Position numbers and translations under genes: made by a program. The notes under the pieces are model-generated. The model was not told the origin of the DNA, ran no database searches, and worked only from the letters and a program-made list of their open reading frames with translations. A DNA stretch of 34,041 bases from a bacterium. GTDB taxonomy: Bacteria; Zhuqueibacterota; Zhuqueibacteria; Oceanimicrobiales; Oceanimicrobiaceae. The DNA lies in assembly GCA_037446635.1 (NCBI GenBank), contig JBBIIG010000023.1:782-34822 (forward strand), written 5' to 3'. Shown one piece after another: positions 9,271-28,684 of this stretch (its first letter is position 1; the number at the start of each line of letters is the position of its first letter).

Positions 9271-9280
9271 TTCTTGCGGA

Positions 9281-9399
9281 TGGAGTACTGGAGAACTGGA
9301 CTTGTGGAACGCTGGATTAATGGATTGATGGAAGAGTGAAGGACATCTTCATCGATCCATTGATCCAATACTCCAATACTCCAATACTCCATTAATCCT
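9281..9399. repeat. Inverted pair of degenerate 8-bp tandem arrays
   Basis: Seven TGGANNNN units from 9281, then six NNNNTCCA-type units from 9352, including ATACTCCA x3. Confidence 0.8.
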
Positions 9400-9435
9400 C
9401 GATGAGAAATCTCAAAACTGATTTAAGGAGGAACA

Positions 9436-9861
9436 ATGCAGAGAATACTAATTTTGTGTACCGGCAACTCCTGCCGCAGTCAAATGGCCGAGGGATTTTT
9501 GAAGTCATTCGATTCGAAATTGGAGGTCCATTCCGCGGGGACGAAGCCGGCTGAGCGGGTTCATCCCAAAGCAGTGGAGGTGATGAAGGAAGTGGGGATT
9601 GACCTTAGTGGCAATAAACCGAAAATGGTGGATCAATTTCTCGATCAGCCGTTCGATTACGTTATCACCGTGTGCGATCACGCGAAAGAGACGTGTCCGG
9701 TGTTCACCGGCAAAGTCAAGCAGCGGCTGCACATCGGTTTCGACGATCCCGCTGCGGCTACTGGAACGGAAGACGAAGTTTACGCCATTTTTCGCCGCGT
9801 GCGCGATGAGATTCGCGACAGCTTCCAAGAGTTTTATGAACAAATCAAACAAAAGGAGTAA
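9436..9861 (+). CDS. arsC: Thioredoxin-coupled arsenate reductase (LMW-PTP fold)
   Basis: P-loop CTGNSCRSQMAEG, resolving cysteines in TVCD...TCP, and FDDP. Confidence 0.93.
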   Translation: MQRILILCTGNSCRSQMAEGFLKSFDSKLEVHSAGTKPAERVHPKAVEVMKEVGIDLSGNKPKMVDQFLDQPFDYVITVCDHAKETCPVFTGKVKQRLHIGFDDPAAATGTEDEVYAIFRRVRDEIRDSFQEFYEQIKQKE

Positions 9862-9865
9862 TGAG

Positions 9866-10120
9866 ATGCTAAACATAAAAGTGGTGGGTCCCGGCTGTGG
9901 CAATTGCCAGCGACTGGAAGCCTTGTGCAAAGAAGTGGTAGCCGAAAACGGCATCGAGGCGCAAATCGAGAAGGTCACGGATTTCAGGCAGTTTGCGGAT
10001 CTGGGTATCCTCTGGACGCCGGGTCTGGTCATCAACGGTCAGGTCATGGCCAGCGGCAAGATTCCGGTCAAAAGTACGCTGGCGCACTGGATACAGGACG
10101 CCGTAAATGGTAAACGATAA
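9866..10120 (+). CDS. Small redox-active disulfide (thioredoxin-like) protein
   Basis: MLNIKVVGPGCGNC...TPGLVING...GKIP. True start is ATG 9866; the ORF track extends it upstream. Confidence 0.88.
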   Translation: MLNIKVVGPGCGNCQRLEALCKEVVAENGIEAQIEKVTDFRQFADLGILWTPGLVINGQVMASGKIPVKSTLAHWIQDAVNGKR

Positions 10121-10153
10121 CGCAATTATTCAACGAATAAAAAGGGTTTCAAA

Positions 10154-11262
10154 ATGGCAAGATTCAACAAGCGATAGAGAAGCTGCAAAATTTCAAGCTG
10201 CTGCCGCTTTTCGTCATCATCAGCATGGTGATCGGCATCGGCCTCGGCAAGCTCTACGGCATCTCGAACTTTGAGCTTACGCCGCCCATCGATGCCATCA
10301 TCGCGATTTTCAAAGGCACGTACACCTTCTCCCTGGCCAACTCGCTGGCGCTGGGCGTGGTCATCGGCTTGTTCTTGATGATGTACCCGGCCATGACCAA
10401 CATCAAATTCGAGGACCTCGGTCGCGCCGTCAAGTCGCCCAAGCAGCTCCTGGTGGTGCTGTTTTTCAACTTTGCGGTGGCGCCGTTCTGGATGCTGCTG
10501 TTGGCCAACTTTTTTCTCGAGCCCGGAAGCGATTTCCACACCGGCCTGGTGCTGTACGGCCTGGCGCCGTGCATCGCTATGGTGATCATTTTCACCTTCC
10601 TCTCTTTCGGTAACACGGCGATGGCGATTGTCCTGGTGGCGATGAACTCCATTCTGCAGATGATTCTGATTCCAGTCTATGCCCACTGGCTTCTGGGCGA
10701 AGTGAATTTTAATGTCTGGGTGGTGGCCGAGAGCGTGGTACTCTATCTCGGCCTGCCGCTGGTGGCCGGCTTTTTTACCCGGCGCTGGGGCGTGAAAAAG
10801 TACGGCGAGGAGGGCTTCAAGAAGGTCAAGACCTATCTCGACAGCCTGTCCATTATCGGTTTGCTGTTCACGCTGATCGTGATGTTCGCGCTCAAAGGCG
10901 ATTTAATCGTGGCGCAGCCCGGCATCATCCTGCAACTGGCCGTCCCGATGACCCTGTTTTTCTGGAGCATGTTCATCGTGGTCTATCTGTTTGGCTGGAA
11001 GCTGGGCTTCAACTACAAAGACGCCACCGCCGTGGCCTTCAACACCACCGGCCGCGATTTTGAAATCGCCATCGCCATTGCCATCACCGCCTTCAACCCC
11101 ACGGTCGCGCTGGCGACGGTGGTGGGCCCGCTCATCGAGGTACCGGTGATGCTGGTCTTGGTGTGGTTTGCTCGCGCCAGCCGACAGCGCTTATTTGCCG
11201 AGACCGCTGAAGCGGTTGAGATCGTACAGGCCACCGCGGCTCAAAGAAAGGAGGTAGCTTAA
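10154..11262 (+). CDS. acr3: Acr3-family arsenite efflux pump; apparent 1-nt frameshift just after the likely start
   Basis: MMYPAM, GLAPCIAMV, FEIAIAIAI and GPLIEVPVM motifs. The frame is open from 10141 and encodes TM1, but the ATG at 10154 is out of frame. The first in-frame ATG is 10225. Confidence 0.9.
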
Positions 11263-11264
11263 CC

Positions 11265-12158
11265 ATGTTCAGAAAAGTATTGTTTCCAACGGATTTTGGC
11301 GAATTTGCCGGCCACGTGCTCACCTGCCTGGGCGACCTGCGCAATGCGGGCCTGGAAGAGGTGGTGCTGCTGCATGTCATCGACGCCGATGAGCTCAACC
11401 AAAATCTTCTGGCTTCATTTTATAAAATCGACGAAGCCCGGTTGCGGGAGATTGCGCAGATCAAGCTGAAAGAATACCAGCAAACCCTGGAGAGCAAAGG
11501 CATTCGTGTCAAGGCGGAGATTGCCACCGGCATCCCCAGCAACAAAATCGTGCGAGTCGCAGAGGCCGAAGGTGTGTCCTTGATCATTGGCGGCACGCAG
11601 CGCCGCCGCGGCGAGGAGGAAGACAAGCTGGATACCACCACCGCGCGGGTGATCCGCAAAAGCAAGCTGCCGGTGCTGGTGATCAAACTCACCGAAGACG
11701 AGATGGCCCACCCGGCTGAGTGCGAGCGCTTTTGCGGCCGGCTGTTCAGCAAAGTGCTGTTCCCCACCGACTGGTCGGACTGCGCCAAAGCCACGCTGGC
11801 CGAGGTGAAAAAACTGCGCGGCGTCGCCCGGCAAATCCTGGTCGGCCACGTCATGGATGAACGGGTACTGAGACATCTCGATCCCAAAAAAATCGAGGAA
11901 TACCGCCAGAACGATTTAAGGCGACTGGACGAAGTTGAGAAGGAGCTGCGCGGCCTTGGCTTCGCGGTGGATACGCATCTGCACGTGGGGCATCCGGCCG
12001 CGGAAATCAACCGCATCGCCGACGAACAGGAGGCGTCGCTGGTGGTCATCGGCAAAAAAGGCAAGACCGGGCTGAAAGAGATCATCTGGGGCAGCACCTC
12101 GGAACACCTGGTGCGCCAGAGCAATCGCTCGGTTTTGGTATATTACTGTTGTGATTAA
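11265..12158 (+). CDS. Tandem-domain universal stress protein ending in Cys-Cys-Asp
   Basis: Two copies of KVLFPTD(F/W); second domain has GKKGKTG...WGSTSE. C-terminus YYCCD. Confidence 0.9.
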   Translation: MFRKVLFPTDFGEFAGHVLTCLGDLRNAGLEEVVLLHVIDADELNQNLLASFYKIDEARLREIAQIKLKEYQQTLESKGIRVKAEIATGIPSNKIVRVAEAEGVSLIIGGTQRRRGEEEDKLDTTTARVIRKSKLPVLVIKLTEDEMAHPAECERFCGRLFSKVLFPTDWSDCAKATLAEVKKLRGVARQILVGHVMDERVLRHLDPKKIEEYRQNDLRRLDEVEKELRGLGFAVDTHLHVGHPAAEINRIADEQEASLVVIGKKGKTGLKEIIWGSTSEHLVRQSNRSVLVYYCCD

Positions 12159-12179
12159 GAAAAATGGAGGTGTTTGGCC

Positions 12180-12533
12180 ATGAAGAAAGCAATTTTAATG
12201 TGCACGTGCAGCTTTGCCTGCCCGAGCATGAAGGACATCAATTTTGGCGAGCTTTCCGAACGCATTCGCCTGGAAATTCCGCACGACTACATGGCCCTGC
12301 ATCCGCGACTGTGTGAAGCGAACGGCGAAGAATTCATGAGCCGGATTTTGAAAGACGATTCGGTTTACATCACCCCGGCCTGTAAAGAAACCAATCAGAA
12401 GAAGCTGTTGCGCGATGCCTTCGAACGCGCCGGCGTGTCCATGGATGACCACTGGAAACCGGTGATGATGAGTTTCAAGAACACCGAGCAAGTTTTCGAA
12501 GAAGTCAAAAAGAAGGTCGAGGAGGTGGGGTAA
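12180..12533 (+). CDS. Small Cys-rich protein resembling the N-terminal domain of heterodisulfide reductase A
   Basis: CTC-x3-C ... HPRLC ... PAC ... RDAFERAG pattern. RBS GGAGG. Confidence 0.6.
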   Translation: MKKAILMCTCSFACPSMKDINFGELSERIRLEIPHDYMALHPRLCEANGEEFMSRILKDDSVYITPACKETNQKKLLRDAFERAGVSMDDHWKPVMMSFKNTEQVFEEVKKKVEEVG

Positions 12534-12534
12534 A

Positions 12535-12849
12535 ATGGCTGGCACTGGCTACATGGGAATTCCTCGCGAGGAAATCCCGTGGCACCCGACCATCGACCCT
12601 GACATGTGCACCGGCTGCGGCGAGTGCTTAGACTTCTGCGCCAACGACGTCTTCGAGCTAAACGAAGATGAGATGATCATGGCCGTGAAGAATCCCTACA
12701 ACTGCGTGGTCGGCTGCGACCGCTGCGCCGAGTTCTGCGCTACGGGCGCCCTGTCTTTTCCGAGCAAAGAGGATCTGGTCGCCACCCTCCGGGAGCTGCG
12801 GGTCAAATACGCCCAGGCGGCGGAAAAGGAAAGAGTTCAAAGTACTTAA
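12535..12849 (+). CDS. 2x[4Fe-4S] ferredoxin
   Basis: CTGCGECLDFC and CVVGCDRCAEFC. N-terminal PREEIPWHPTID. Confidence 0.9.
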   Translation: MAGTGYMGIPREEIPWHPTIDPDMCTGCGECLDFCANDVFELNEDEMIMAVKNPYNCVVGCDRCAEFCATGALSFPSKEDLVATLRELRVKYAQAAEKERVQST

Positions 12850-12850
12850 T

Positions 12851-13327
12851 ATGTATGAACGATTGGAGAAACAGGCCGCAGCATTACACCACCTCGTCGC
12901 CGAGCTGATGAAGAAATACCAGTTCCGCCACCGCCAAGAAATCTGCTGTCATGGCATCTCGATCACCCAGTATTACGCGCTGGCGGCACTTGGCGAGACC
13001 GGGAAATTGTCGATGGGCGAATTAGCCAGGCAGATGCGTCTGAACGTGAGCACGATGACGCGCATCGTCGATCAGCTTGTTGCCAAAAGCCTGGTGCATC
13101 GGTGGATGGATCCTCAAGATCACCGCGTCTGTGACGTGGCGCTCACCCAACAGGGACGGTCGCTGCTCGGGGAGATCACGGGCGAATTGCTGGAAACAGA
13201 GAAAGCGATTCTCTGTTGCATTCACCCCGAGGAGCGCGAGACATTGATCGTCGCTTTGAGAGAACTATCGAGAGCGGTGGATCAATGGCTGGCGCTCGCT
13301 CGACAAAAAGAAGGAGTAACCCCATGA
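12851..13327 (+). CDS. MarR-family regulator with vicinal cysteines
   Basis: MGELA...STMTRIVDQLVAKSLV...DHR...LTQQG; ICCHG and LCCIH. Confidence 0.88.
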   Translation: MYERLEKQAAALHHLVAELMKKYQFRHRQEICCHGISITQYYALAALGETGKLSMGELARQMRLNVSTMTRIVDQLVAKSLVHRWMDPQDHRVCDVALTQQGRSLLGEITGELLETEKAILCCIHPEERETLIVALRELSRAVDQWLALARQKEGVTP

Positions 13328-13533
13328 AGGCTGAACAATTCATTCACGAATTTGACGCGCTCTCGCCTGACGACAAGAAGCGCGTGCTGATGGCCATTGG
13401 CCCTGCCTTCTGCCGCGAGCTGATGAGCCATCCCGATCTAATCATGGAGATGCGAGGGTGGTGTCGAAACAATTTGACACCAGGTGAAATGCAGGACATA
13501 ATTGCGATGTTTCGCCGCAAAGCGGAGAAATAA
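13324..13533 (+). CDS. Small hypothetical protein (69 aa, two Cys)
   Basis: RBS AAGGAG, ATGA overlap with the MarR stop, and the ORF fills the operon gap. Confidence 0.65.
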   Translation: MKAEQFIHEFDALSPDDKKRVLMAIGPAFCRELMSHPDLIMEMRGWCRNNLTPGEMQDIIAMFRRKAEK

Positions 13534-13557
13534 TGCAATCAACTAAAGGAGTACAAA

Positions 13558-14925
13558 ATGGGAGTTGCGCAACCTGTTACGCATAAGAAAAGTCAGCGCG
13601 GAGGGGAACTTGTCAAAGCGCTGCTTTTCCGTAAGCCCAACCGGCGCGAGGTGGGATACCTTGCGTTGGTAGCGCTGTTCTACGCCCTGGGCGTGGGATA
13701 TGTCTATATCCACGATTTGTCCTTTCAATCGCTTTTTCTTTATGGACTGCTGCAGCCGCAAGGCGTCACCGGAGAGGCGGCGCGGCTCACCGAAATCGAT
13801 ACGCCGCTGTCGTGGAATCTTTTGCAGGTGGGCTGGTTTGTCCTGATCAAAGGCGCTGCGGTGCTGGTGGAGCTGTTCCAATACTGGGTGGTGGGCATGC
13901 TCATTGCTGGCGCGCTGGTGGTGTTTGTTTCCTAGACTAAAGTGAAACAAAAGATGGGCTACGGCGGCGTGAAGGCCAATTTCCTCGCCACCACCTCGGG
14001 CGCGATTATTCCCATCTGCTCCTGCGGCATCGTGCCGGTGCTGGCGGGCATGGTGGAAGCCGGCATTCCACTGGGCGCGACCATGGCCTTTCTCATCGCC
14101 GCGCCGATGTTGAATATCCCGACGGTGTTTATGACGGCCGGTGTGCTGGGGTGGAAAATGGCGATTGGCCGCATCATTGCCACCTTCGGCATTGCGCTGG
14201 CGGTCGGGCAGGTGCTGGCCTACTGGCAGCGCCAACACCGTGGACTGAAGCATTTTCTCAAAATCAAAGTCGCACCCAAACTCTCGCCCGAACTACAGCG
14301 GTTTGCCTTTCAAATCGGCATGAAGTTAGTCAACAATCCGGACGGCGCCAGCACCGCCGACATTGGCGCTCAGCACGAAAGCAAGCTTTTGCAGTTGGAG
14401 GAAGCGGGCTTGATTGAACGCAACCATCTTGGCAACTGGCAGCTTGTGGTGTCCGACGCCGAAGCGCCGCAAAACGCCTGTTTTGTGTTGCCCAGCGGCG
14501 ACATCAAGCGCCCCTTCGGCGAAAAAATTCGCGAGACCCTTCGCACCGCCTACGATTTCTTTCTGCAGCTCAACTACTATCTCATTCTGGCGGTGGTGAT
14601 TGCCGGCGCCATCAAAGTGCTGATTCCGACTTCGGTCATCGTCAATTTTGTCGGCGGGGAAAGTTTAAACTCAGTGCTGGTAGCCTCAGCCGTCGCGGTG
14701 CTGGCCTATGTTTGCACCTATGTGGAAGTGCCCACCGCGGTGGCGCTGATGGCCAAGGGCATGGGCGGCGGCGCTACGCTGGCCTATCTGCTGGGCGGCC
14801 CGGGGCTGTCGCTGCCTTCGATTGCCATGCTTTCGGGAGTTTTTAAAGCTCGAGTATTGGCGCTCTATGTTGGCGTCAGTTTTTTGGGATGCGTTGTCGC
14901 AGGTTACCTTTTTAATTTATTTTAG
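13558..14925 (+). pseudogene. Second ArsP/DUF318-family permease, interrupted by an in-frame TAG at 13933-13935
   Basis: ORFs 13558..13935 and 13942..14925 share a frame (VFVS*TKVKQKMG). PICSCG, AFLIAAP, YVCTYVEVP and GPGLSLP motifs. Confidence 0.8.
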
Positions 14926-14936
14926 GAGATAGAAGA

Positions 14937-15281
14937 ATGGCTGATCCAGAAGTAAGAATTTTTTCCATGCCGCAAGAGTTCCCGTGCGGGCCGGCCTCGG
15001 AGTGCTGCGGCCCCATCGGCCAGACTGAGGAAGAATTGCAAACGCTAAAGCAAGGACTTGAGCGAGAACTCGGCGTTCAGGTCCAAACCTTTAATGTCAA
15101 AAATGGTGCGGACATGAAGGAGCACCGCCAGATCCTGGCCTTGCTGCGATCTTTTGGCTGGGGCGTCTTGCCTATCATTGCGGTGGGCGATGAAGTGGTC
15201 AGCATGGGCGCCCCGCGCGTCGAAGATGCGGCGGCAGCCGTGCGCAATAAGCTGAATACTGTAATGATTAATTCAAAGTGA
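14937..15281 (+). CDS. ArsD-like arsenic metallochaperone / thioredoxin-fold protein
   Basis: N-terminal IF...CGPASECCGP Cys cluster and C-terminal LPIIAVGDEVVSMG, as in ArsD-type folds. Confidence 0.6.
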   Translation: MADPEVRIFSMPQEFPCGPASECCGPIGQTEEELQTLKQGLERELGVQVQTFNVKNGADMKEHRQILALLRSFGWGVLPIIAVGDEVVSMGAPRVEDAAAAVRNKLNTVMINSK

Positions 15282-15292
15282 GGAGATGAAAC

Positions 15293-15526
15293 ATGCCAAC
15301 CTACGAATTCGGCTGCATCGATTGTGGCGAAAAATTCGAGATTTTTGCTACAGTCAGTCAAAAGGAAAGCGGGCTGGATTTAACCTGCCCCAAATGCGGG
15401 GGGATGAAGGTCGCCCAGCTTTTTAACAGCATTAACTTTGTCAAATCCAACGCCGGCAGCGCCGACAAGGCTTTTCAAATGTCGGGCGGCTGCGGCCCCA
15501 ACGCCGGCCCCAACTGCTGCGGATGA
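15293..15526 (+). CDS. FmdB-family zinc-ribbon protein with a CCG tail
   Basis: MPTYEFGCIDCG...CPKCG; ends GGCGPNAGPNCCG. Confidence 0.88.
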   Translation: MPTYEFGCIDCGEKFEIFATVSQKESGLDLTCPKCGGMKVAQLFNSINFVKSNAGSADKAFQMSGGCGPNAGPNCCG

Positions 15527-15537
15527 AGGAGACAATC

Positions 15538-15939
15538 ATGGCAATACAAACTTCAGAAGGCGTGCTGACTAAGGAAGCTCTGCTCTCCGAAGCCGCCCAC
15601 CTCGGAAGCGCCGTGCGCGCTTCGAAAGTGTTTCAAGATTTTGTTACGGCACAGCACGCAGCCGACATCAGCGCTAAAGTACGACAAGCGCGCCAGCAGC
15701 TTTTCGAAGCCAGAGCGAGGGTGCAGAATGCAATGCAGAACCTGGGCGACGTAGCCAGCGCGGTTCACCACTTTCAGTCGGCGCAGGCTGAATTACAGTC
15801 GCTGCCGGAACTCAAAAAGCTCTTCGCCAGCCAGCAGGAGCTCTTAAGCCTGTTTGAATTCCTCGCCGCACAAATCAGCCAAGCGAGCGGGGTGGATTTT
15901 GTCGATGCCTGCCGGGTTTCAAGCGGCTGTTGCGGATAA
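15538..15939 (+). CDS. YlbF/YmcA-like helical protein with a CCG tail
   Basis: LGSAVRASKVFQDF...QISQASGVDF helical pattern; ends CRVSSGCCG. RBS AGGAG before ATG 15538. Confidence 0.65.
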   Translation: MAIQTSEGVLTKEALLSEAAHLGSAVRASKVFQDFVTAQHAADISAKVRQARQQLFEARARVQNAMQNLGDVASAVHHFQSAQAELQSLPELKKLFASQQELLSLFEFLAAQISQASGVDFVDACRVSSGCCG

Positions 15940-15956
15940 TTTTGAGGGTTAATGAT

Positions 15957-16289
15957 ATGGATTCCAAACTAAAATCAGAAATTGAAGGCTTTGCCGATGC
16001 GCTTCGGCAATCCGAGGCCGTTTACAATTACTTGAGTGCAAAGGCAGAAGTAGAAAGCGACGGTCAATATGCCGGATTTATAAACCAGATTGAGGGACAA
16101 GCTCCGGCTGGCGATGTAGCCGCGCTGAATGTGACCTGGCAGACGGTTGCCGACGCGCCACAATTGCGCGCCTATCTGCAGGCCAGACTTGCGCTGGTCA
16201 AGCTATTGCAGGAAATTAATGAGCAGATCAGTTCTGAGGTTGGTTTCAACATCGCTGCCAGTTTACAGCCCGCTTCGTGCTGCGGTTAA
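15957..16289 (+). CDS. Second YlbF/YmcA-like protein with a CCG tail
   Basis: FADALRQSEAVYNY...LLQEINEQISSEVGFN; ends ASCCG. Confidence 0.65.
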   Translation: MDSKLKSEIEGFADALRQSEAVYNYLSAKAEVESDGQYAGFINQIEGQAPAGDVAALNVTWQTVADAPQLRAYLQARLALVKLLQEINEQISSEVGFNIAASLQPASCCG

Positions 16290-16365
16290 AGATTTCCAAT
16301 TTGATGAGAGCAAAGTGAGCGCGTCAAGTGAAAAGGAATAAGTCAAAGGAATAAGGAGCAAGAAT

Positions 16366-16614
16366 ATGACTGTGAAAATCCTGGGCATCGGCTGCCCGAA
16401 ATGTAAAATCCTGGAAACCAAAGTTAAGGAAGTGGCCATGAAAAATGGCATCGGCTGCGAGATTGAAAAAGTCACTGACCTGTCGCAGATCATGAATTAC
16501 GGCGTGATGATGACGCCCGGTCTGGTCATCAACGAGCAGGTGAAGAGTGTCGGTGCCGTTCCCGGCGAAACGCAGATTCTGCAGTGGCTGCGGGAGGTGC
16601 AACATGCGCTCTAA
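16366..16614 (+). CDS. Small redox-active disulfide (thioredoxin-like) protein, paralogue of 9866..10120
   Basis: KILGIGCPKC...IEKVTD...YGVMMTPGLVINE. Confidence 0.9.
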   Translation: MTVKILGIGCPKCKILETKVKEVAMKNGIGCEIEKVTDLSQIMNYGVMMTPGLVINEQVKSVGAVPGETQILQWLREVQHAL

Positions 16615-17190
16615 AATTCTTGCACTGGTTTTCTTGATGTCCGCCGCGCTGCTGGTTTCCTGTGGGAGTGAGCAGACGCAAACAACCCGCGAGCAAGTTA
16701 AAACAGGCGGCCAGCTTACCGCAGATCAGAACCGAGAGCCAACCACCCGTGACGTTGGCGCTAATAGCGACCATCCCACCGGCAAACACGAGACGAACAG
16801 CCCGCGCCAACAACTCCCAAGAAAGTAGTCAGCGAGAAAAAAAATTCCGCACCCAAAATCACTTTTATTGAACTGGGCTCGGTCAATTGCATCCCCTGCA
16901 AGGCCATGCAGCCCGTGATGAAGTCCATCGAACAAAAATATGGCGAACAAATCCGAGTTGTCTTTTACGATGTCTGGACGCCCGAGCAGCAGAAGTACGC
17001 GCAACAGTTTGGCATTCGTCTGATTCCCACACAAGTCTTTCTCGACGCGAACGGTTCGGAAATCTTTCGCCACGAGGGCTTTTTTCCGGAAGCTGAGATT
17101 GATCAGTTTCTGCGGGCGCAGGGGTTGGCGGAAACCCTGCCTGCGCGGGCAGGCGATCCGCATCGCGGAAAAGCCCAGCAAGGATCGTGA
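16604..17190 (+). pseudogene. Thioredoxin-domain lipoprotein, frameshifted between 16768 and 16828
   Basis: Lipoprotein signal MRSKIL...LLVSC in one frame (stop at 16828). KITFIELGSVNCIPCKAM...IPTQVF thioredoxin domain in the -1 frame, with no start of its own before the CxxC. Confidence 0.8.
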
Positions 17191-17199
17191 GGCGCTCAA

Positions 17200-17904
17200 A
17201 TGATTTCGGAAACGTTTAGCGTTTTGAGTCAGGCTCTCGGCGATGCCTTTGGCGTTGCTCTGCTGGCGGCGCTGGCCTGGGGCGTGCTGAGTATATTGTT
17301 GAGTCCCTGCCATCTTTCCAGCATCCCACTGATCATCGGCTACATCAGTACCCAGGGAACGGTCACTGCGCGGCGTTCCTTCAATCTGTCCGCCGTCTTC
17401 GCTTTGGGCGTACTGGTGACCATCGCCTTTATTGGAATCATCACAGCCTCGCTGGGACGGTTAATGGGAGATGTTGGCGCGGCTGGCAACCTGCTGGTGG
17501 CAGGCATATTTGTGATCATCGGTCTGTACTTGATGGACCTCTTGCGATTGAATTGGAGCGGTGTACGTATGCAGCAGACTCGCTTGCGCGGTGCGGCCGG
17601 TGCGCTGACACTGGGACTGCTGTTCGGCATCGGACTCGGGCCGTGCACCTTTGCCTACATGGCGCCCGTGCTGGGTACGGTGTTTCACCTTTCGCAGACC
17701 AGCGTGGTCAAAGCCAATTCACTGCTGCTGGCGTTTGGCCTGGGTCACGTGGGAGTGATCGTGGGCGCCGGATCGTTGGGCAACTGGGTGCAGCGCTACC
17801 TCAACTGGACCGGCAGCTCAAAAGCGATGGTGCGGGTGAAGCGTGTCTGCGGCGGGCTGGTGCTGCTGGGCGGGGTGTATTTAATTTTCACGACCTTGTC
17901 ATAA
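17200..17904 (+). CDS. ccdA: CcdA/DsbD-beta transmembrane electron transporter
   Basis: LSPCHL and LGPCTF redox cysteines; about 6 TMs. Confidence 0.88.
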   Translation: MISETFSVLSQALGDAFGVALLAALAWGVLSILLSPCHLSSIPLIIGYISTQGTVTARRSFNLSAVFALGVLVTIAFIGIITASLGRLMGDVGAAGNLLVAGIFVIIGLYLMDLLRLNWSGVRMQQTRLRGAAGALTLGLLFGIGLGPCTFAYMAPVLGTVFHLSQTSVVKANSLLLAFGLGHVGVIVGAGSLGNWVQRYLNWTGSSKAMVRVKRVCGGLVLLGGVYLIFTTLS

Positions 17905-17907
17905 AGA

Positions 17908-17940
17908 AACCTTGTCAGGGTTCGGAACCCTGACAGGGTT
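17908..17940. repeat. REP-like palindrome, with a partial second copy at 3744-3756
   Basis: AACCTTGTCAGGGTT-cgg-AACCCTGACAGGGTT. AACCCTGTCAGGG also occurs at 3744. Confidence 0.7.
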
Positions 17941-17957
17941 AAGCCGGACGAATTGAA

Positions 17958-18362
17958 ATGAGAGCAAATACTACGCAAAAAACCGTGAAACTATTTAAGG
18001 CGCTGGCCGACGAAAACCGGGTGCGCATTTTAAAGATGCTCGAGACGCGGGGGCTGTACGTCTGCGAAATTACGGAGACGCTGCGCCTGGCGCTTTCCAC
18101 GGTTTCCAAGCATTTGTCTATTTTGCGCGATGCCGGCTTCATTGTGGACGAAAAGGAGGGCCGCTGGGTGCGCTGTCGTCTCAACCGCGAACCCGACGAT
18201 CCATGCGTACAAGAACTGCTTCGCATGGTGGCTCGCTGGCTTCCAACCGACGAAACGGACACGGTTGAGTTGGCGCGCGTTCTCGCCTGCCGCACAGAGC
18301 GGCGCTGTCAGAGTGAAAACTTACTCGTGGAAATGTTGGATGATCCGTTCACCTTATCGTGA
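17958..18362 (+). CDS. arsR: Second ArsR/SmtB-family repressor
   Basis: FKALADENRVRILKML, LYVCEI and STVSKHLSILRDAG. Clear paralogue of 7614..7982. Confidence 0.88.
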   Translation: MRANTTQKTVKLFKALADENRVRILKMLETRGLYVCEITETLRLALSTVSKHLSILRDAGFIVDEKEGRWVRCRLNREPDDPCVQELLRMVARWLPTDETDTVELARVLACRTERRCQSENLLVEMLDDPFTLS

Positions 18363-18374
18363 GGAAGATAAAAT

Positions 18375-19163
18375 ATGGAAGGTATCAAGAGTATTGCATT
18401 CATCGGCGGTGGCCGCATCACGTATCTGTTGCTGTATGCATTAAAGAAACGCAACGCGCTGCCGGGTCAGGTTGTGGTTGCCGACCCCAACACGGGCGTT
18501 CTTGAAAAAGTAAAAGCGATCGCGCCCAATGCCATCACCTGCACTTCAAACAATGGCGAAGCCGCCGCGGCGAACGTGATCTTTCTGGCGGTTCATCCGC
18601 CGGTAGCGCCGCAGGTGCTTGAAGAGCTGCGCGGAAAAATTGGCGCATCGACGACGCTGGTGTCGCTCGTCCCGACGATTTCATTGAACCGCTTGAACTC
18701 GACTCTCGGCAGCAACCGTCTCGTGCGGATGATCCCTAACGCGCCCTCGATCATCCATCAAGGGTACAATCCGGTGGCGTTTCACCCGTCGGTAACGTCA
18801 GAGGAGAAATCGCGCTTGCTGCAAATGTTCAGTCATTGGGGCGCGGCGCCGGAAGTGGATGAGAAGCTGCTGGAGGCGTACGCCGTTATCGCCGCGATGG
18901 GGCCGACCTATTTCTGGTTTCAATGGCTTGAGCTGCAGCGGTTGGCGGTGGAATTTGGGATGAAGGACGACGCGGCGAAAGCGGCACTCGCCGGCATGTT
19001 GCACGGCGCCGTGGACACGTTATTCCATTCCGATCTGTCGCCGACTGAAGTTCTCGACCTGATACCGGTGCATCCGCTGAAGGAGAATGAAAAGGCTGTT
19101 CGTGAAATCTTTTCCGGGAAATTGGGCGGGTTGTATCGCAAGCTCAGCGAGGCAACGAAATAA
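18375..19163 (+). CDS. Pyrroline-5-carboxylate reductase-like NAD(P)-binding oxidoreductase
   Basis: IAFIGGGRI Rossmann motif, FLAVHP, RMIPNAP and AMGPTY. Confidence 0.8.
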   Translation: MEGIKSIAFIGGGRITYLLLYALKKRNALPGQVVVADPNTGVLEKVKAIAPNAITCTSNNGEAAAANVIFLAVHPPVAPQVLEELRGKIGASTTLVSLVPTISLNRLNSTLGSNRLVRMIPNAPSIIHQGYNPVAFHPSVTSEEKSRLLQMFSHWGAAPEVDEKLLEAYAVIAAMGPTYFWFQWLELQRLAVEFGMKDDAAKAALAGMLHGAVDTLFHSDLSPTEVLDLIPVHPLKENEKAVREIFSGKLGGLYRKLSEATK

Positions 19164-19169: not shown

Positions 19170-19311
19170 ATGGTTCCAATCATGACTGCTCAAGAAATTC
19201 TTCAAACCAAAAAAGTATTTGCCCTGATCGGCGCGACGTCGGATAGGTGGAAATGCGGCTACCAGGTGCTGGCCACTTTGATCGAGACCGGCTACACCGT
19301 TCTGCCGATCA
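19170..19311 (+). pseudogene. CoA-binding protein (YccU-like), N-terminal fragment
   Basis: ILQTKKVFALIGAT...KCGYQVLATLIETGYTVLPI; similarity stops abruptly where 'PINP' is expected. Confidence 0.75.
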
Positions 19312-19530
19312 CGGGAAGCCATCCTCGAAGCCGCTCCGTTGCGGGTGCGCCCAATTTTGATGACACAAGCAACGACAATACTTGGCCTGCTGCCGCTGGC
19401 GATCAACTGGGGCGAAGGCGGCGACATGCTGCAGCCCATGGCGGTGGCGGTGATCGGCGGGTTGTTTTTCTCATTATTGGTGACGCTGCTGTTGTTGCCG
19501 AGCTTGTATTTTATGTTTGAGAGAAGGTAA
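19312..19530 (+). pseudogene. RND (AcrB/CzcA-family) efflux permease, C-terminal fragment only
   Basis: REAILEAAPLRVRPILMT...LGLLPLA...PMAVAVIGGL...TLLLLPSLY corresponds to the last two TMs of an RND pump. Confidence 0.88.
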
Positions 19531-19741: not shown

Positions 19742-20857
19742 ATGTCTCAAACTTTGACACGTAAAGAATTCATCACCAGTGCGGCAAAGTATGCAGCGGG
19801 CATTTCGGCGGGCGTCGCAGGACTCAGCTTGCTTTCACCGGAAAAAACCAAAGCGACGGTTCAGCAATACACTTGGCCGTGGCCCTATCAGAAACTCGAT
19901 CCGGAACATGTGCGCGTGTTGGGGCACGATAGCTTTTGGGAAAAAGCCTGCTCGTATGCGGCGTTCAAAGGCATCATTCATGCTCTGGCCGAGACGGTTG
20001 GCGAGCCCTTCACGTTGATGCCGCCGGAAATCATGATTTTCGGGCACGGCGGCGGCGCGGGTTGGGGAACCCTCTGCGGCGCGTTGAATGGCGCTTCGGC
20101 GGCCATCTGTTTGGTCACCGACAAAGAAACGTCCGACAAGCTCATCAACGAGCTGATTGGCTGGTACACGCAGACGGAATTTCCCACCGACAAGAGCAAC
20201 GAGTATGCAGTGAATCATGTTTTTGTGGACCAGCGTTATGATCAGGCGCTCCCTCAGAGCCTGTGCGGATCACCGCTCTGTCATGCCTCGGTCACAGAGT
20301 GGTGCATCGCCTCAGGCTTCAAAGTGTCGGATACCGAACGCAAAGAGCGCTGCGCCAGACTCGCTGGTGATGTCGCGGCTTATGCCGTCGAGTTGCTGAA
20401 CCAACATTTTGACAGCGTGTTCACGCCCATCTACGTCCCGCCAGAATCCATTGCGGCCTGCATGAGTTGTCACGGCGCGAGTTTTCAAAATAATGTTGCC
20501 GCGAAGATGGAGTGCATGCAATGTCACGGCGATCCGCATGCGACGACTGCTGTTGAAGAGATGCCAGGCGTGCCCGCTTCGTTCAGCCTGGAGCAAAACT
20601 ACCCCAATCCGTTTAATCCGGGAACGAGCATTCAATTCTCGGTGGCCAACGCCGAAAAGGTTGATCTCGCGATTTATGATATTCGAGGTCGCTTGGTGCG
20701 CACATTGGTGGATCACGAATTGTATTCACCGGGGCAGTACACCCTGAGTTGGGACGGCACGGACAACCACGGGCGGCGAGTCGCCAGCGGCGTTTACTTC
20801 ACCAAGATGCAAGCGGGAAAATTTGTTGCCACACGCAAAATGTCGATGGTGAAGTAA
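19742..20857 (+). CDS. Split-Soret cytochrome c-like protein (C-GCAxxG-C-C family, two CxxCH) fused to a T9SS/FlgD-type C-terminal domain
   Basis: Tat-like LTRKEFI signal; GWGTLCGALNG, SPLCHASV, ERKERC; CMSCH and CMQCH; then FSLEQNYPNPFNP...IYDIRGRLV...WDG...SGVYF...RKM. Confidence 0.82.
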   Translation: MSQTLTRKEFITSAAKYAAGISAGVAGLSLLSPEKTKATVQQYTWPWPYQKLDPEHVRVLGHDSFWEKACSYAAFKGIIHALAETVGEPFTLMPPEIMIFGHGGGAGWGTLCGALNGASAAICLVTDKETSDKLINELIGWYTQTEFPTDKSNEYAVNHVFVDQRYDQALPQSLCGSPLCHASVTEWCIASGFKVSDTERKERCARLAGDVAAYAVELLNQHFDSVFTPIYVPPESIAACMSCHGASFQNNVAAKMECMQCHGDPHATTAVEEMPGVPASFSLEQNYPNPFNPGTSIQFSVANAEKVDLAIYDIRGRLVRTLVDHELYSPGQYTLSWDGTDNHGRRVASGVYFTKMQAGKFVATRKMSMVK

Positions 20858-21261
20858 ATTTTAAACCGGCTGCCCGATTTAATCAAAACAACTTGTATGA
20901 TGAATCGGGCGTCCTGATCAATTCCGTCTTCAACTTTGCGAGATGATGGTTCAATCCGGGCGCCTGAATTTCCAGAATTATTCGCGGCGCCCGGATTTCA
21001 TTTCCCACTAACCATGAATTCCCACAATTGAGAATTGCGGAGGATAACATTCTCAGGTGTGGGAATTTGTTTTTGAAGCTCAGAACTTTTCGCAACCTCT
21101 ATAAATACTGTAGAATCTATGCATAGCTGAAGGCACAGAACCCCTCAGTATTTGTGGCATTTCTTTTGATCCTCAGCAATCCAATTTAACATTCCATCCC
21201 CATTTAGGAATTGACGACTTTCCTTTAATCTTTTGGATTTAAATTCTAAGGAGCAAAAATT

Positions 21262-22164
21262 ATGGCTCAAGAACAAAAGTCCAATTTAACCCGCAGGGCA
21301 TTTTTCAAACTGACGAGCAGCGCCGCCGCGGGGTTGGCGGCGGTAACGGCGTTGCTTGCCAGTTCCCGGAAATCACGGCCGGTGGGCCCGCCTTATTCCA
21401 TTACGGAATTTAACGGCGTCAGCGAAACCGTGCGCATGCACAACGACCTGCAGCGCGCGCTTGCCAAAAAGCCGGAAGAGCGGCGCTGGGCGATGGTCAT
21501 CGACACGCGGCGCTGTATCGGCTGCAACGCCTGCACCGCGGCTTGCATCGCCGAAAACAATCTGCCGCCGGGGGTGATGTATCGCACCGTGCCGGAAATC
21601 GAAAGCGGCGAATTTCCCGACGTGCAGCGTCACTTCATGCCTACCAACTGCATGCAGTGCGACAACGCGCCGTGCATCGAGGCCGCCAACAAAATCATTC
21701 CCGGCGCCATGTTCAAACGGCCCGATGGCATCGTCGAAATTGACTACACCAAAATGAGAGGCCGCGAAGTTTTCGAGGCCGCCAAGAGCGCCTGCCCCTA
21801 CACCGCGCTTTATTTTGATGAAGGGAAAAATTACACCGATGGCACGCCGGCGGTGCAGCCGTATGAAAAACGCAGCGTCAACGAATATGACAAAACCTGG
21901 ACGCGCCTGCAAACCGCTGGTTCGACGCGCAAATGCCATTTCTGCACGCAGCGCCTCGCGGCCGGACAACTGCCGGCGTGTGTCGCCACCTGCACCGGAC
22001 TGGCAATGCACTTCGGCGATTTGAACGATCCCGAAAGTCTCGTGGCGCAAATGATGCAATCGAATCGCCTCATGCGGCTGGAAGAAAGTCAGGGCACGGA
22101 GCCGCGGGTGTTTTATTTAGCGGCTCAGCCGGAGGAAAGCTGCATGACGTGCCATTCATTTTAA
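21262..22164 (+). CDS. TtrB/NrfC/DmsB-family Fe-S subunit with a Tat signal, three clusters and a C-terminal CxxCH
   Basis: LTRRAFFK; WAMVID..CIGCNACTAAC; CMQCDNAPC; ACPY; KCHFC..PACVATC; FGDLNDP; GTEPRVFY; CMTCH. Confidence 0.9.
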   Translation: MAQEQKSNLTRRAFFKLTSSAAAGLAAVTALLASSRKSRPVGPPYSITEFNGVSETVRMHNDLQRALAKKPEERRWAMVIDTRRCIGCNACTAACIAENNLPPGVMYRTVPEIESGEFPDVQRHFMPTNCMQCDNAPCIEAANKIIPGAMFKRPDGIVEIDYTKMRGREVFEAAKSACPYTALYFDEGKNYTDGTPAVQPYEKRSVNEYDKTWTRLQTAGSTRKCHFCTQRLAAGQLPACVATCTGLAMHFGDLNDPESLVAQMMQSNRLMRLEESQGTEPRVFYLAAQPEESCMTCHSF

Positions 22165-22256
22165 GCGCAGTTTGTAGTAGTGCCTTTAGGCACCGACACT
22201 GAAGGGGCTATGAAAAACTACTTTTGAGATGTTGTCACTTTCTGGAGGTGAAAAAA

Positions 22257-25200
22257 ATGAAACCCAAAATAGATCAACCCAACGGCCAATCCCGTCGCGA
22301 ATTTTTGAAAACCTCGGCGCTGCTCGGCGGCAGCGCCGCGTTCCTTTCGCAAGCAGTGTGGTGCGAAAAACTGTTTGCCGCCGCCGAAGCAGGAATGCTC
22401 TCCGCTGCCGACACCTACGATCTGGCCAAACCGGAAAACATGCTGCAAACGGTTTGCTTGCAGTGCAACACCGGCTGCGGCATTCGCGTGAAGCTGATGA
22501 ACGGCGTCGCGGTGAAAATCGACGGCAATCCCTACAACCCGTGGACATTGGTGCCGCCCATCGATTACAAGACGCCACTCGCCGACTCAGCTAAACTCGA
22601 AGGCGCGCTTTGCCCGAAAGGCCAATCCGGCGTGCAGACGCTCTACGATCCGTATCGCATTGTCAAAATCTTGAAGCGCGCCGGTAAGCGCGGCGAAAAT
22701 CGCTGGGTGAGCATCTCGTTCGAGCAGGCCGTCAATGAAATCGTCAACGGCGGTTTGCTCTTCAAAAACGTCAAAGGCGAAGAGAATCGCCGCGTCACCG
22801 GCTTGAAAGAATTGTGGGCGCTGCGTGATCCGAAGCTCGCAGCCGACATGGGCAAAGCCATCGACGAGATTCGTCACAAAAAAACGCCGGAAGAAAAGAA
22901 AGCGGCAGTGGAGGAATTCAAAAAGAAATTTGCCGCACATCTCCATTTGCTCATCGACCCCGAGCATCCCGATCTCGGCCCGAAGAACAATCAGGTGAGT
23001 TTCGTTTGGGGCCGCGTCAAAGCCGGCCGCTCGGAGTTCATCAAGCGCTTCATCAGCGAATCGTTCGGCTCCACCAATGCGCATGGCCACACGACTGTCT
23101 GCCAAGGCTCGCTCTATTTCACCGGCAAGGCGATGAGCGATCAATTCGTCGAAGGCAAATTTTCCGGCGGCCAAAAATTTTACTGGCAGGCGGATACCAG
23201 CAACGTGGATTTTCTCCTGGCTATCGGCTCGTCGTACCTCGAAGGCGGCTACGGCCCGACGCATCACGCGCGCAAGCTCATGCAACGCCTCGTCGAAGGC
23301 AAGGTCAAAATCGCCGTGGTCGATCCGCGCTTCTCGAAGATTGCAGCGAAGGCTTACAAATGGGTGCCGGCCAAGCCCGGCTCCGAAGCCGCGCTGGCGC
23401 TCGGCATGATGCGCTGGATCATCGAGCAAAAAAGATTCGATGAAAAATTTCTCAGCGCCGCCAACAAAGCCGCGGCCAAAGCTGCGGGCGAGCAATCGTG
23501 GACCAACGCCGCGTGGCTGGTGAAGGAAGACGGCGCGTTCCTGCGCGCCTCGGAAATCGGTTTGGCGCCAAAAGAAAAGCGGCAAACGAAAGACGGCAAA
23601 GAGTGGGAATTCGATCCGTTCGTCATTCTTGCCAAAGGCCAACCGCTCGCGTTCGATCCGAATGATGAGAAGAATGCGGCCGCCGGCGACGTGCTGGTCA
23701 ACACCACCGTTGGCGGCATCAAAGTGAAAAGCAGTCTGCAAATCATCTATGAATCCGCCGCTTCAAAGACGATTGAAGAGTGGGCGGAAGTCTGCGGCAT
23801 CTCTGCGGATGACATTGTTGAGCTGGCGCGCGAATTCACCTCGCACGGCAAGCGCGCGGTGGCGGATCCGCATCGTGGCGTCTCGCAACACACCAATGGT
23901 TTTTACAACGTGCTCGCGGTTTATTGTTTGAATGCGCTTATCGGCAATTGGGATTGGAAGGGCGGACTCATCAAAGCTTCCACCTACAACATTCTCGGCG
24001 AGAAGGAAGGCCAGCCGTTCGCGCTCGGCAAAATGCATCCGGCGAAGCTCAAGCCGTTCGGTCTCAGCATTATTCGCCACGATGCGAAATACGAAGAGTC
24101 CACGATTTTCTCCGGCTATCCGGCCAGGCGCAACTGGTATCCGTTCTCCAGCGATGTGTATCAGGAAATCATTCCTTCCATTGGCGATGCTTATCCTTAC
24201 CCAACGAAAGTGCTGTTCACGTACATGGCAGCGCCGACCTATTCACTTCCCGGCGGACAAACCAACATCGAGATTCTCAGCGATCCCAACAAGATTCCGC
24301 TGGTGATTGCCTCGGACATCACCATCGGCGAAACCTCGATGTATGCCGATTATATTTTTCCGGATTTGACGTATTTGGAGCGCTGGGAATTTCACGGCAG
24401 CCATCCGAGCATTCCGCAAAAGGTGCAGCCGGTGCGCAACCCGGCAGCCGCGCCGGTGACAGAGTCCGTGACCGTGTTTGGCGAGAAACTGCCGATTTCT
24501 CTCGAAAGCATGATTCTCGCGATTGCGGAGAAAATGGGCTTGCCCGGTTTCGGGCCGAACGGCTTAGGTGAAAATCAAGCGTTGGTTCGTCCCGAAGATT
24601 TTTATTTGAAGATGGTGGCGAACATTGCCGCGGGCGACAAGCCCGGCGACGCGGTGCCCGATGCCGATGACGCGGAGCTGCAACTCTTTCTCGATGCGCG
24701 CCGTCATTTGCCGCCAACGGTTTTCGATCCGGTGAAATGGCAGCAAGCGGTTGGCGAGGCAAATTGGAAGAAAGTCGTGTACGTGCTCAATCGCGGCGGC
24801 CGTTATCAGGATTATGAGAAAGCGTACGACGGCGAAAAGTTTGCTAACAAGTATGGCCAGCTTATCAATGTGTATTTGGAAAAATATGCGAAGGCCAAAT
24901 CGCCGATGACCGGAAAGAAGCTTTTCGGCTATCCGGTTTATCAGCCGGTGATGGATGTATTGGGCCGCGAGATTCACGACGAGCAGGAAGGCTTTGATTT
25001 GAATCTCATCACCTACCGCGTGGTGACGCAAACCAAATCACGCACGGTTGCCGATTATTGGCTCAACGCCATTCAACCCACAAATGAAATTCTCCTCAAC
25101 AGCCAGGATGCCAGTCGCCTCGGTTTAAGCGAGGGCGATAAAGTGAAGATCGTTTCGAAGTCGAACCCCGACGGCATGTGGGATTTGAAGAACGGCACGT

Positions 25201-25469
25201 TCAAGCCGATGATTGGCGAGGTGAAAGTCATCGAAGGCATTCGTCCCGGCGTGATTGCGTTTTCGCTCGGCAAGGGCCACTGGGCTTATGGCTCATCGGA
25301 TGTGCGCATCGATGGCAAGATCGTCAAAGGCGATGCCCGGCGCGCCACCGGCATTCACGCCAACGCCGCGATGCGGTTGGATGATCATTTGAAGAACACG
25401 TGTTTGATCGACCCGGTGGGCGGCAGTGTGAGTTTTTATGATACGAGGGTGAGGGTGGTGAAGATTTGA
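22257..25469 (+). CDS. Mo/W-bisPGD oxidoreductase catalytic subunit, tetrathionate reductase (TtrA/SrdA)-like clade
   Basis: RBS GGAGGT, Tat SRREFLK, FS0 motif CLQCNTGC...CPKG, YDPYR, HGHTTVCQG (Cys Mo ligand), ADYIFPD and a C-terminal molybdopterin-dinucleotide domain; 1070 aa. Confidence 0.88.
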   Translation: MKPKIDQPNGQSRREFLKTSALLGGSAAFLSQAVWCEKLFAAAEAGMLSAADTYDLAKPENMLQTVCLQCNTGCGIRVKLMNGVAVKIDGNPYNPWTLVPPIDYKTPLADSAKLEGALCPKGQSGVQTLYDPYRIVKILKRAGKRGENRWVSISFEQAVNEIVNGGLLFKNVKGEENRRVTGLKELWALRDPKLAADMGKAIDEIRHKKTPEEKKAAVEEFKKKFAAHLHLLIDPEHPDLGPKNNQVSFVWGRVKAGRSEFIKRFISESFGSTNAHGHTTVCQGSLYFTGKAMSDQFVEGKFSGGQKFYWQADTSNVDFLLAIGSSYLEGGYGPTHHARKLMQRLVEGKVKIAVVDPRFSKIAAKAYKWVPAKPGSEAALALGMMRWIIEQKRFDEKFLSAANKAAAKAAGEQSWTNAAWLVKEDGAFLRASEIGLAPKEKRQTKDGKEWEFDPFVILAKGQPLAFDPNDEKNAAAGDVLVNTTVGGIKVKSSLQIIYESAASKTIEEWAEVCGISADDIVELAREFTSHGKRAVADPHRGVSQHTNGFYNVLAVYCLNALIGNWDWKGGLIKASTYNILGEKEGQPFALGKMHPAKLKPFGLSIIRHDAKYEESTIFSGYPARRNWYPFSSDVYQEIIPSIGDAYPYPTKVLFTYMAAPTYSLPGGQTNIEILSDPNKIPLVIASDITIGETSMYADYIFPDLTYLERWEFHGSHPSIPQKVQPVRNPAAAPVTESVTVFGEKLPISLESMILAIAEKMGLPGFGPNGLGENQALVRPEDFYLKMVANIAAGDKPGDAVPDADDAELQLFLDARRHLPPTVFDPVKWQQAVGEANWKKVVYVLNRGGRYQDYEKAYDGEKFANKYGQLINVYLEKYAKAKSPMTGKKLFGYPVYQPVMDVLGREIHDEQEGFDLNLITYRVVTQTKSRTVADYWLNAIQPTNEILLNSQDASRLGLSEGDKVKIVSKSNPDGMWDLKNGTFKPMIGEVKVIEGIRPGVIAFSLGKGHWAYGSSDVRIDGKIVKGDARRATGIHANAAMRLDDHLKNTCLIDPVGGSVSFYDTRVRVVKI

Positions 25470-25591
25470 TATTTTGAAGATGTAATACTTACCGTGCTGA
25501 AAATTTGTCGTCGGTGGCTCAGCGCCAGAACGCGAGGGGTCGTTTCAAACCCGTTTTCTGATTGAGTTCGGAAGTTGAACTGAGGCATTAA

Positions 25592-25618
25592 GCCCCCGGA
25601 TTTTTCCGGGGGTTTTTT
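25592..25618 (+). terminator. Intrinsic terminator after the molybdoenzyme operon
   Basis: GCCCCCGGA-tttt-TCCGGGGG followed by TTTTTT. Confidence 0.8.
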
Positions 25619-28682: not shown

Positions 28683-28684
28683 AC

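Follow-up and report, generated by a model that had tools for sequence, protein, structure and literature searches.

The window analysed here, a 34,041-nucleotide stretch of a genome from the bacterial phylum Zhuqueibacterota (GenBank assembly GCA_037446635.1, contig JBBIIG010000023.1), contains a two-gene unit encoding an iron-sulphur (Fe-S) subunit (B) and a molybdoenzyme catalytic subunit (A), both related to those of tetrathionate reductase (Ttr). We find that B lacks the ligands of the cluster FS4 and ends in a CxxCH motif, and that the B-A unit is a real, widespread and uncharacterised variant of the Ttr-like arsenate reductase group, most likely fed by cytochromes through a haem on B. 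Since B has lost both the membrane anchor and the FS4 site, and has gained a predicted haem tail, it would draw electrons from cytochromes rather than from quinone. The full mechanism, in which an anchor-less periplasmic B-A enzyme takes electrons from c-type cytochromes through haem c on the tail of B and uses them to reduce arsenate, is one to which we give about even credence; we infer the attachment of the haem, its place at the FS3 end of B, the electron donor, the substrate and the direction of the reaction.

The three co-oriented open reading frames that an initial annotation of this DNA had placed within positions 19742-25618 are present (Table 1), as are the 92 bp that it gave between B and A (measured from the B stop codon to the A ATG) and the terminator that it described after A, a hairpin with a T-run. 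The same annotation had remarked on the absence of NrfD, TorD and two-component genes, and domain and profile annotation located none within this interval. The conserved module likely consists of B and A only, with the upstream split-Soret gene outside it. A promoter scan was at chance level (7 sites against 4.0 +/- 2.1 expected), as was a sigma-54 pattern (15 seen, 16 expected), with no occurrence upstream of B on the + strand.

Table 1 Features of the window, with positions counted from its first nucleotide
Feature	Position	Strand	Basis or content
Arsenic/metal island	7614..19163	+	Two ArsR, two ArsP-type permeases, ArsC-like LMWPc, Acr3-like, ArsD-like, thioredoxins, DsbD-TM, proC-like
Deletion junction 19311/19312	19170..19530	+	Truncated coenzyme A (CoA)-binding gene joined to 3' end of a resistance-nodulation-division (RND) permease gene
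Split-Soret cytochrome c-like protein, two CxxCH, type IX secretion system (T9SS) type A C-terminal domain	19742..20857	+	Neighbour, not a conserved part of the module
B gene, TtrB-like Fe-S subunit, 300 aa	21262..22164	+	Fer4_11 TtrB/DsrO/ArrB-like profile match
Remodelled FS4 site of B	21685..21792	+	Fourth Cys of motif 2 is Ala142; motif 3 CxxCxxC replaced by KMRGREVFEAAKSA; predicted helical
C terminus of B, C294-M-T-C297-H298, predicted haem c attachment site	22141..22155	+	CxxCH motif, invariant in homologues
A gene, Ttr-like catalytic subunit with predicted Mo/W-bis(pyranopterin guanine dinucleotide) cofactor, 1070 aa	22257..25469	+	Profile match and residue alignment
Intrinsic-terminator-like hairpin closing the B-A unit	25590..25615	+	11 pairs, 7 G-C, T-run

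An Fe-S subunit without FS4 and with a C-terminal CxxCH

B bears a twin-arginine translocation (Tat)-type signal (LTRRAFFK, read from the sequence) and twelve cysteines for three [4Fe-4S] clusters (C85/88/91/95, C130/133/138, C178 and C225/228/240/244). Alignment to relatives indicates that all four FS4 ligand cysteines are missing; following the standard ligand pattern of this family of Fe-S subunits, we take Ala142 and the altered motif 3 to mark their former positions. FS4 is the cluster closest to the quinone site in PsrABC and to the haem in NarGHI. Among the best 120 of 1581 protein matches to B, 118 combine loss of FS4 with a CxxCH tail. When the window B was aligned with 110 of these 120 (omitting the self match, eight longer sequences and one with altered tail spacing), the twelve cluster cysteines and the Cys, Cys and His of the tail were invariant in 111/111 sequences, while the linker before the tail varied. 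A CxxCH that remains invariant while its linker varies freely is consistent with a flexibly tethered haem c motif. Judged from sequence, the tail has the marks of a c-type cytochrome, namely a conserved CxxCH on an exported protein in a genome with cytochrome c maturation genes (CcmE and CcsA/CcmF-type proteins), and it likely binds haem c, which would lie at the FS3 end of B. Split-Soret cytochrome c sets a precedent, being a Tat-type protein whose c haems are C-terminal. The structure model used for mature B has a predicted local distance difference test (pLDDT) score of 92.6 (an earlier model from a nine-sequence alignment, at pLDDT 43.9, was discarded), finds its best Foldseek matches in ArrB (6cz7_B) and PsrB (2vpw_B), and has helices at the former FS4 site. 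A search of the Atlas with B returned generic Fe-S clusters only.

The association between these traits is strong among relatives. Using matches to A, we surveyed the best 80 of 172 genome loci: all ten with an FS4-less B are tailed and none has an adjacent NrfD gene, while the tail occurs in 0/59 loci with a four-cluster B (the remaining 11 were left unclassed: five had no B on the contig, four were unmapped, one had an assembly gap and one was broken). A metagenome scan with patterns specific to FS4-less B, which selects for loss of FS4 and not for the other traits, added 64 loci, giving 74 in total, or 46 clusters at 90% identity. Setting aside four cut by contig ends and two frameshifted, B is complete in 68 of the 74, and the tail is present in 67 of these. 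The remaining sequence (L146) is FS4-less without a CxxCH tail, and is either a real exception or a truncation. A lies within 500 bp of B in all 62 FS4-less loci that have A on the contig, and NrfD is adjacent in none, the sole match being 6.7 kb away. In a tree from which the trait columns had been removed, 69 FS4-less B rows form a single clade (FastTree support 0.95), separate from both NrfD-linked and four-cluster anchor-less B subunits. FS4-less tailed B subunits are found in records labelled Zhuqueibacter, Ignavibacteriales, Bacteroidota and Acidobacteriota, as well as in many metagenomes. In one natural pair, L004 matches a Melioribacter locus (L069) in gene order (arrT-like, kinase, regulator, porin, B, A, moaA), yet differs in having no C subunit and a remodelled B. 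No TorD gene was seen in related loci, where the distant queries used make this a weak test.

Of the four-cluster loci, 37 of 59 also have no adjacent NrfD gene, and in 25 of these 37 a trihaem cytochrome gene lies just upstream. These 37 (within L014-L079) constitute a second anchor-less lineage with a single four-cluster B clade, often accompanied by ars genes, and are mostly from Desulfobulbaceae, Geobacteraceae and Anaeromyxobacter records.

We consider it unlikely that the tail is instead a metal, disulfide or docking motif, such that B-A would be a three-cluster arsenate reductase fed at FS3 by a soluble or membrane cytochrome, like Desulfovibrio FdhAB, in which three of the four clusters are on the small subunit. 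B is a Tat-type protein, exported folded, and haem on such a tail is only predicted; the tail is modelled with low confidence, and L146 shows that FS4 may be absent where the tail is too. FdhAB likewise has four clusters in all (PMC9774666; here and below, statements about cited papers refer to the portions of them that were available). The invariance of Cys-x2-Cys-His despite a freely varying linker argues against such a role, as does the sister clade of four-cluster anchor-less loci, so many of which keep a separate trihaem cytochrome gene just upstream.

The points that the initial annotation raised for checking or refuting its reading, a neighbourhood survey for nrfD in close homologues and a cognate anchor elsewhere in the genome, came out in favour of an anchor-less enzyme. 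No cognate TtrC was found in the genome, which is 97% complete: the best TtrC-profile score was 141 bits, against 381-538 for 19 of 20 training sequences. Three NrfD-family genes exist, each within another operon, and we rejected them as anchors for B-A, given that the matches belong to an HmcBC-like pair, to an alternative complex III (ACIII), and to one B-C-A unit split over two contig ends. The single TorD-family gene sits in an operon of the type II dimethyl sulfoxide reductase family. Moreover, the genome encodes a NapC/NirT-domain cytochrome, the HmcBC-like pair, ACIII, a large multihaem cluster and many multihaem cytochromes, and consequently quinol-to-cytochrome routes exist. Under the proposed mechanism B-A, with its export signals and without a membrane anchor, would be free in the periplasm; electrons would pass from menaquinol to a quinol dehydrogenase encoded elsewhere in the genome (NapC/NirT-like, HmcBC-like or ACIII), then to a periplasmic cytochrome and the tail haem, and from there through FS3-FS2-FS1 and FS0 to Mo and As(V), while the arsenite produced would be handled by the ars island.

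The catalytic subunit, its substrate and direction

A has a Tat signal (SRREFLK), FS0 cysteines at 67/70/74/119, a G252-R253 motif, and H278-x3-C282, where C282 is the predicted Mo-ligating cysteine. Its best family is TtrA (NF011567), at 518 bits against a cut-off of 1750, and it is not in the Arr/Arx clade: its NF041714 score of 132 bits is far below the 1600 cut-off, and the gene order is BA, not (C)AB. Among named relatives, the closest is a Candidatus Zhuqueibacter record (L002), whose A subunit is 93% identical; taken with the many T9SS-tailed proteins and the SprA of the window genome, this makes a KSB1-type bacterium the probable host. In L002, 300 bp of the 3' end of A recur about 7.6 kb downstream of A (L002:18843-19142), which suggests an insertion with duplication. 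Identity is 58% to the Ttr-like protein of Anaeromyxobacter sp. PSR-1 (copy 1) and 56% to that of Melioribacter sp. OK-6-Me, against 30% to the annotated TtrA of an E. coli plasmid (L092) and 24% to an ArxA-type protein (L160). In our tree A belongs to a PSR-1/Melioribacter clade of 32 rows (Shimodaira-Hasegawa-like approximate likelihood ratio test 100), the deeper order of which is not settled, apart from true TtrA as represented by the one E. coli plasmid sequence in place of Salmonella, SrdA not being among the rows. The active-site segment HGHTTVCQGSL is identical to that of PSR-1. Exact-match look-ups with the A proteins of PSR-1, Melioribacter and Geomobilimonas returned no entry. The G-R motif, which is common to A and ArxA, occurs in 103 of 107 aligned A subunits, its position having been aligned to L160 and PSR-1 and not directly to ArrA R165; the four rows without it are true TtrA, its Azospirillum sister, a haloarchaeal protein and PhsA. 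A further unit with the G-R motif, 34% identical to the window A, is a B-C-A-chaperone molybdoenzyme gene set on a Citrobacter arsenatis plasmid (L093:4040-9435), which is divergent from arsRDAB and is carried on conjugative enterobacterial plasmids.

Ttr-like arsenate reductases are treated as distinct from true Ttr in section 4.2 of PMC12949373, where a Gly-Arg pair is proposed as a mark of arsenic enzymes, pending mutagenesis, and Ttr-like enzymes are likewise treated as As(V) reductases in PMC11462812 and PMC13608581. By its sequence, A is a member of this Ttr-like group, which likely reduces arsenate. Gene context points the same way in part: ars or arrT-like genes occur in 11 of the 27 FS4-less clusters whose locus spans 8 kb or more (13 if ArsR is included), and in 35 of 50 four-cluster loci, counts that come without a background rate from random windows. 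A porin gene is present in 11 of the same 27 clusters; in the two closest relatives the porin comes after ArsP and thioredoxin genes (L002) or an arrT-like sensor system (L001) located within 3 kb of B. This porin resembles phosphate-selective porin clusters, although a minority of members carry that family. In the window genome, a 37% homologue precedes phoB-, phoR- and pstS-like genes (L176, G000:C69:5263-10252), and this hints that the porins form an oxyanion/phosphate family with no Pfam match. The Melioribacter ttrA gene has also been reported beside arrTSR-like and ars genes (PMC5492636). The suggestion in the initial annotation that arsenic is a candidate substrate is therefore better supported than before, via the tree, the G-R motif, and the ars or arrT-like genes beside relatives.

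It is distinctly unlikely that the wiring is as proposed and the substrate is another oxyanion or a sulphur compound (selenate, antimonate or tetrathionate). The Ttr clade is functionally mixed (PMC12949373), our tree lacks SrdA, B subunits of the haem-tailed type are also found with A subunits from more distant lineages (L107, L118 and L121, at 47-49% identity), and many relatives have no nearby ars gene. Arsenate is nevertheless favoured by the G-R motif, by the active-site segment shared with PSR-1 and by the much higher identity to PSR-1 than to true TtrA; furthermore, a Ttr-like arsenate reductase is reported to be unable to reduce tetrathionate (PMC12949373).

A single A clade for haem-tailed enzymes was rejected (approximately unbiased test, p 3e-84, in a 42-row quick LG+G4 tree), and the A subunit of L126, which has a haem-tailed B, is sister to that of the NrfD-linked L034. 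Because the A partners of haem-tailed B do not form one clade, the electron-input part appears to have been exchanged more than once, subject to long-branch caveats.

The reaction might also run in reverse, with arsenite being oxidised and its electrons leaving via the tail haem for cytochromes supplying the reduction of oxygen, nitrate or extracellular Fe(III), in the way that Aio passes them to cytochrome c; we hold this to be improbable. The As(V)/As(III) potential is about +60 mV, and an enzyme oxidising a substrate whose potential lies above that of menaquinone would have to leave the quinone pool. Menaquinone itself stands at about -80 mV (PMC9774666). The G-R motif is common to ArxA, some relatives (L003 and L005) adjoin multihaem-porin clusters, and the genome has two haem-copper oxidase-family genes and NapA, with no AioA or ArrA above cut-off. 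Conversely, reports on the characterised Ttr-like relatives describe them as As(V) reductases, an anchor is missing from Shewanella-type ArrAB, which is nonetheless a reductase (PMC2500031, PMC8076601), and the quinone-linked Melioribacter locus has the same sensor-porin context as L004. A bolder scenario, and in our view a rather improbable one, joins reversal to exchange: an Fe-S subunit in which a tethered haem c replaced the quinone-facing cluster would be a one-time invention, a plug-in adaptor re-paired with several Ttr-like A subunits, which unplugged them from the quinone pool and turned an arsenate reductase into a cytochrome-linked arsenite oxidase in these uncultured bacteria, adding to Aio and Arx a third route, which present marker genes would miss.

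Several observations weigh against a cytochrome-fed arsenate reductase with haem on B. Confidence in the B model is lowest at the tail (pLDDT 63 and 50 in the last blocks), and no distal ligand for its predicted haem was identified. Multihaem cytochrome genes occur in only 9 of the 27 FS4-less clusters, with no dedicated partner conserved, and 16 of the 27 have no ars or arrT gene in the available stretch. The window genome holds no close orthologue of the arrT-like sensor of relatives, or of the porin that flanks their B-A genes. No cultured or assayed member of the haem-tailed clade was found in the literature covered, arsenate induction of Melioribacter ttrA was not statistically clear (PMC5492636), and the G-R rule is still a hypothesis in PMC12949373 itself.

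The arsenic island and the split-Soret gene

The break at 19311/19312, which the initial annotation had read as a deletion, is real: the 5' third of a CoA-binding gene lies to its left, while to its right an RND permease gene is reduced to its final 72 codons, and contigs of relatives from public runs stop or begin at this point with other flanks. It had been suspected that this deletion alone brought the B-A unit next to arsenic genes. However, genes like those of the island also lie beside B-A in L002, L010, L099, L105 and L118, and since arsenic genes flank close relatives too, the linkage is not solely a result of the deletion. Within the island are two tandem small proteins resembling YlbF/halo-CC-star (window 15523-16289). 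Upstream of it, a porin, a small PBP-like protein and a HAMP histidine kinase precede SixA-like and Ppx/GppA genes (2087-5431); downstream of the B-A unit a 995-aa receiver-like/PPDK_N (phosphoenolpyruvate-utilising) fusion is followed by a patatin-Omp85 protein (25695-30868).

The initial annotation had counted the split-Soret gene into a three-gene module with B and A, a grouping that finds no support: the gene adjoins 0/47 FS4-less loci in which 1.6 kb or more is available upstream of B, and 0/100 B loci overall. Its product scores 171 bits with NF047622 (cut-off 400) and matches PDB 1h21 at E 2.5e-34, with both CxxCH motifs aligned; it has a twin-arginine-like signal (TRKEFI), and its C-terminal domain is of the FlgD_ig/Por_Secre_tail type. 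In a survey of the phylum, split-Soret matches were found in 8 of 167 genomes and the A clade in 10 of 167; both occur only in the window genome and in G052, where they are on separate contigs, and of the eight split-Soret genomes only the window genome has the gene beside ttr genes. Among the 19 genomes of the family to which the two closest ttrBA relatives belong, none has a split-Soret match. Four other genomes of the phylum (L164-L167) have the split-Soret domain fused to a T9SS tail with a Tat-like signal, and a redox protein using Tat and then T9SS would be unusual; two of these four copies adjoin proC-like or permease/thioredoxin genes of the ars-island type. The split-Soret gene looks like cargo of the ars island.

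Could this protein nonetheless be a dedicated redox partner of B-A in the window lineage? We think this very unlikely. The gene is co-oriented and adjacent in the window, a related strain (run X1) has pieces matching the split-Soret gene as well as the 150 bp upstream of B, with no contig joining them, and L002 has a different T9SS-tailed protein, an octahaem cytochrome, 5.7-6.8 kb upstream of B. Opposed to this are the absence of the gene from relatives' loci, the 404-bp gap before B, which holds a hairpin directly past the split-Soret stop codon, and the tail itself, which if working (SprA is present, along with many T9SS-tailed proteins) would place the protein outside the outer membrane. 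A complex prediction for B and the split-Soret domain scored 0.20 against a mark of 0.32, and was not used as evidence. The broader claim of the initial annotation, a soluble, anchor-less Ttr-clade enzyme that is probably coupled to cytochromes or haem, has stood; its placing of the haem link in the split-Soret protein has not, the predicted link lying on B itself.

Elsewhere in the genome, four multihaem cytochromes with 7-9 CxxCH motifs each carry T9SS-type C-terminal domains (G000:C20:9834-11318, 25199-27994, 28859-31867 and 41430-43109). Their cluster includes Rieske/cytochrome b, NapC-like, HmcBC-like and napA genes, and is a candidate T9SS-exported electron conduit.

Comparison with known systems

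Loss of the anchor alone is not new: ArrAB often lacks a C subunit (PMC2500031, PMC8076601), and four-cluster anchor-less Ttr-like loci exist, including one in PSR-1. A ttrAB pair without ttrC has been noted once and was attributed to a contig end (bioRxiv 2020.10.01.322446). In contrast, we found no description of FS4 loss combined with a terminal haem motif on a TtrB-like subunit in the open-access literature, supplements being outside the scope of the search, and the available portions of PMC13685797, PMC9386147 and PMC5317091 contain nothing on this architecture. Ttr-like enzymes are emerging as a second route of arsenate respiration, while surveys normally use arrA (PMC11462812, PMC12949373). 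Automatic pipelines label the FS4-less B 'tetrathionate reductase subunit B', yet this branch cannot work as TtrBCA does; its signature, FS4 loss with a terminal CxxCH, offers an easy screen.

The B-A unit shares with TtrBCA (Salmonella, Shewanella ANA-3, and the E. coli plasmid copy) a B gene upstream of a long TtrA-type A, and Tat signals on both subunits, which is a TtrBCA trait (PMC2500031). It departs from that system in lacking the nine-helix NrfD-type TtrC of the B-C-A order, in having three clusters rather than the four of TtrB, in its haem-type tail, and in an A subunit with a G-R motif that is 30% identical to TtrA and falls in a separate clade. Similarly, there is no C subunit corresponding to SrdC of the selenate reductase SrdBCA, a comparison made without SrdA in the tree. 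ArrAB (Shewanella ANA-3, PDB 6cz7) resembles the unit in being a soluble periplasmic pair, often without an anchor, with the best-matching B fold and an arsenic-binding Arg, but the window A is only distantly related, the Arr gene order is AB, and ArrB retains the FS4 motif without carrying a haem tail. Desulfovibrio FdhAB is coupled to cytochrome c3 and is also a soluble AB pair, although its catalytic clade and substrate are different and the haems are on separate proteins and not on a tail of B. Its four clusters in all provide a further likeness (PMC9774666). As for the split-Soret cytochrome c of Desulfovibrio desulfuricans (1h21), the window gene is homologous and has both C-terminal CxxCH motifs, but its product adds a T9SS domain and scores below the family cut-off.

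The closest comparison is with As(V) reductases of the Ttr-like type from PSR-1 and Melioribacter. That of PSR-1 was reportedly described by Muramatsu in 2020, and we find two Ttr-like loci on one PSR-1 contig (L056:835-6196 and L056:8887-14193), either of which may encode the described enzyme, the first with the order NrfD-B-A and the second with an arrT-like gene, a trihaem cytochrome gene, a four-cluster B without an evident Tat signal, and A, with no NrfD. The window unit agrees with the PSR-1 and Melioribacter enzymes in its A clade, its WGR/FGR and HGHTTVC segments, its B-before-A order and its arrT/ars-type context, and differs in that four clusters and no tail are found in their B subunits, and in that NrfD accompanies PSR-1 copy 1 and the Melioribacter enzyme. 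PSR-1 copy 2, next to its arrT-like gene, is anchor-less, with a four-cluster B and the trihaem cytochrome encoded separately. Closely related A subunits thus come with three wirings, namely NrfD and quinone, four clusters with a separate trihaem cytochrome, and three clusters with a haem-type tail, which together constitute a natural experiment on electron input.

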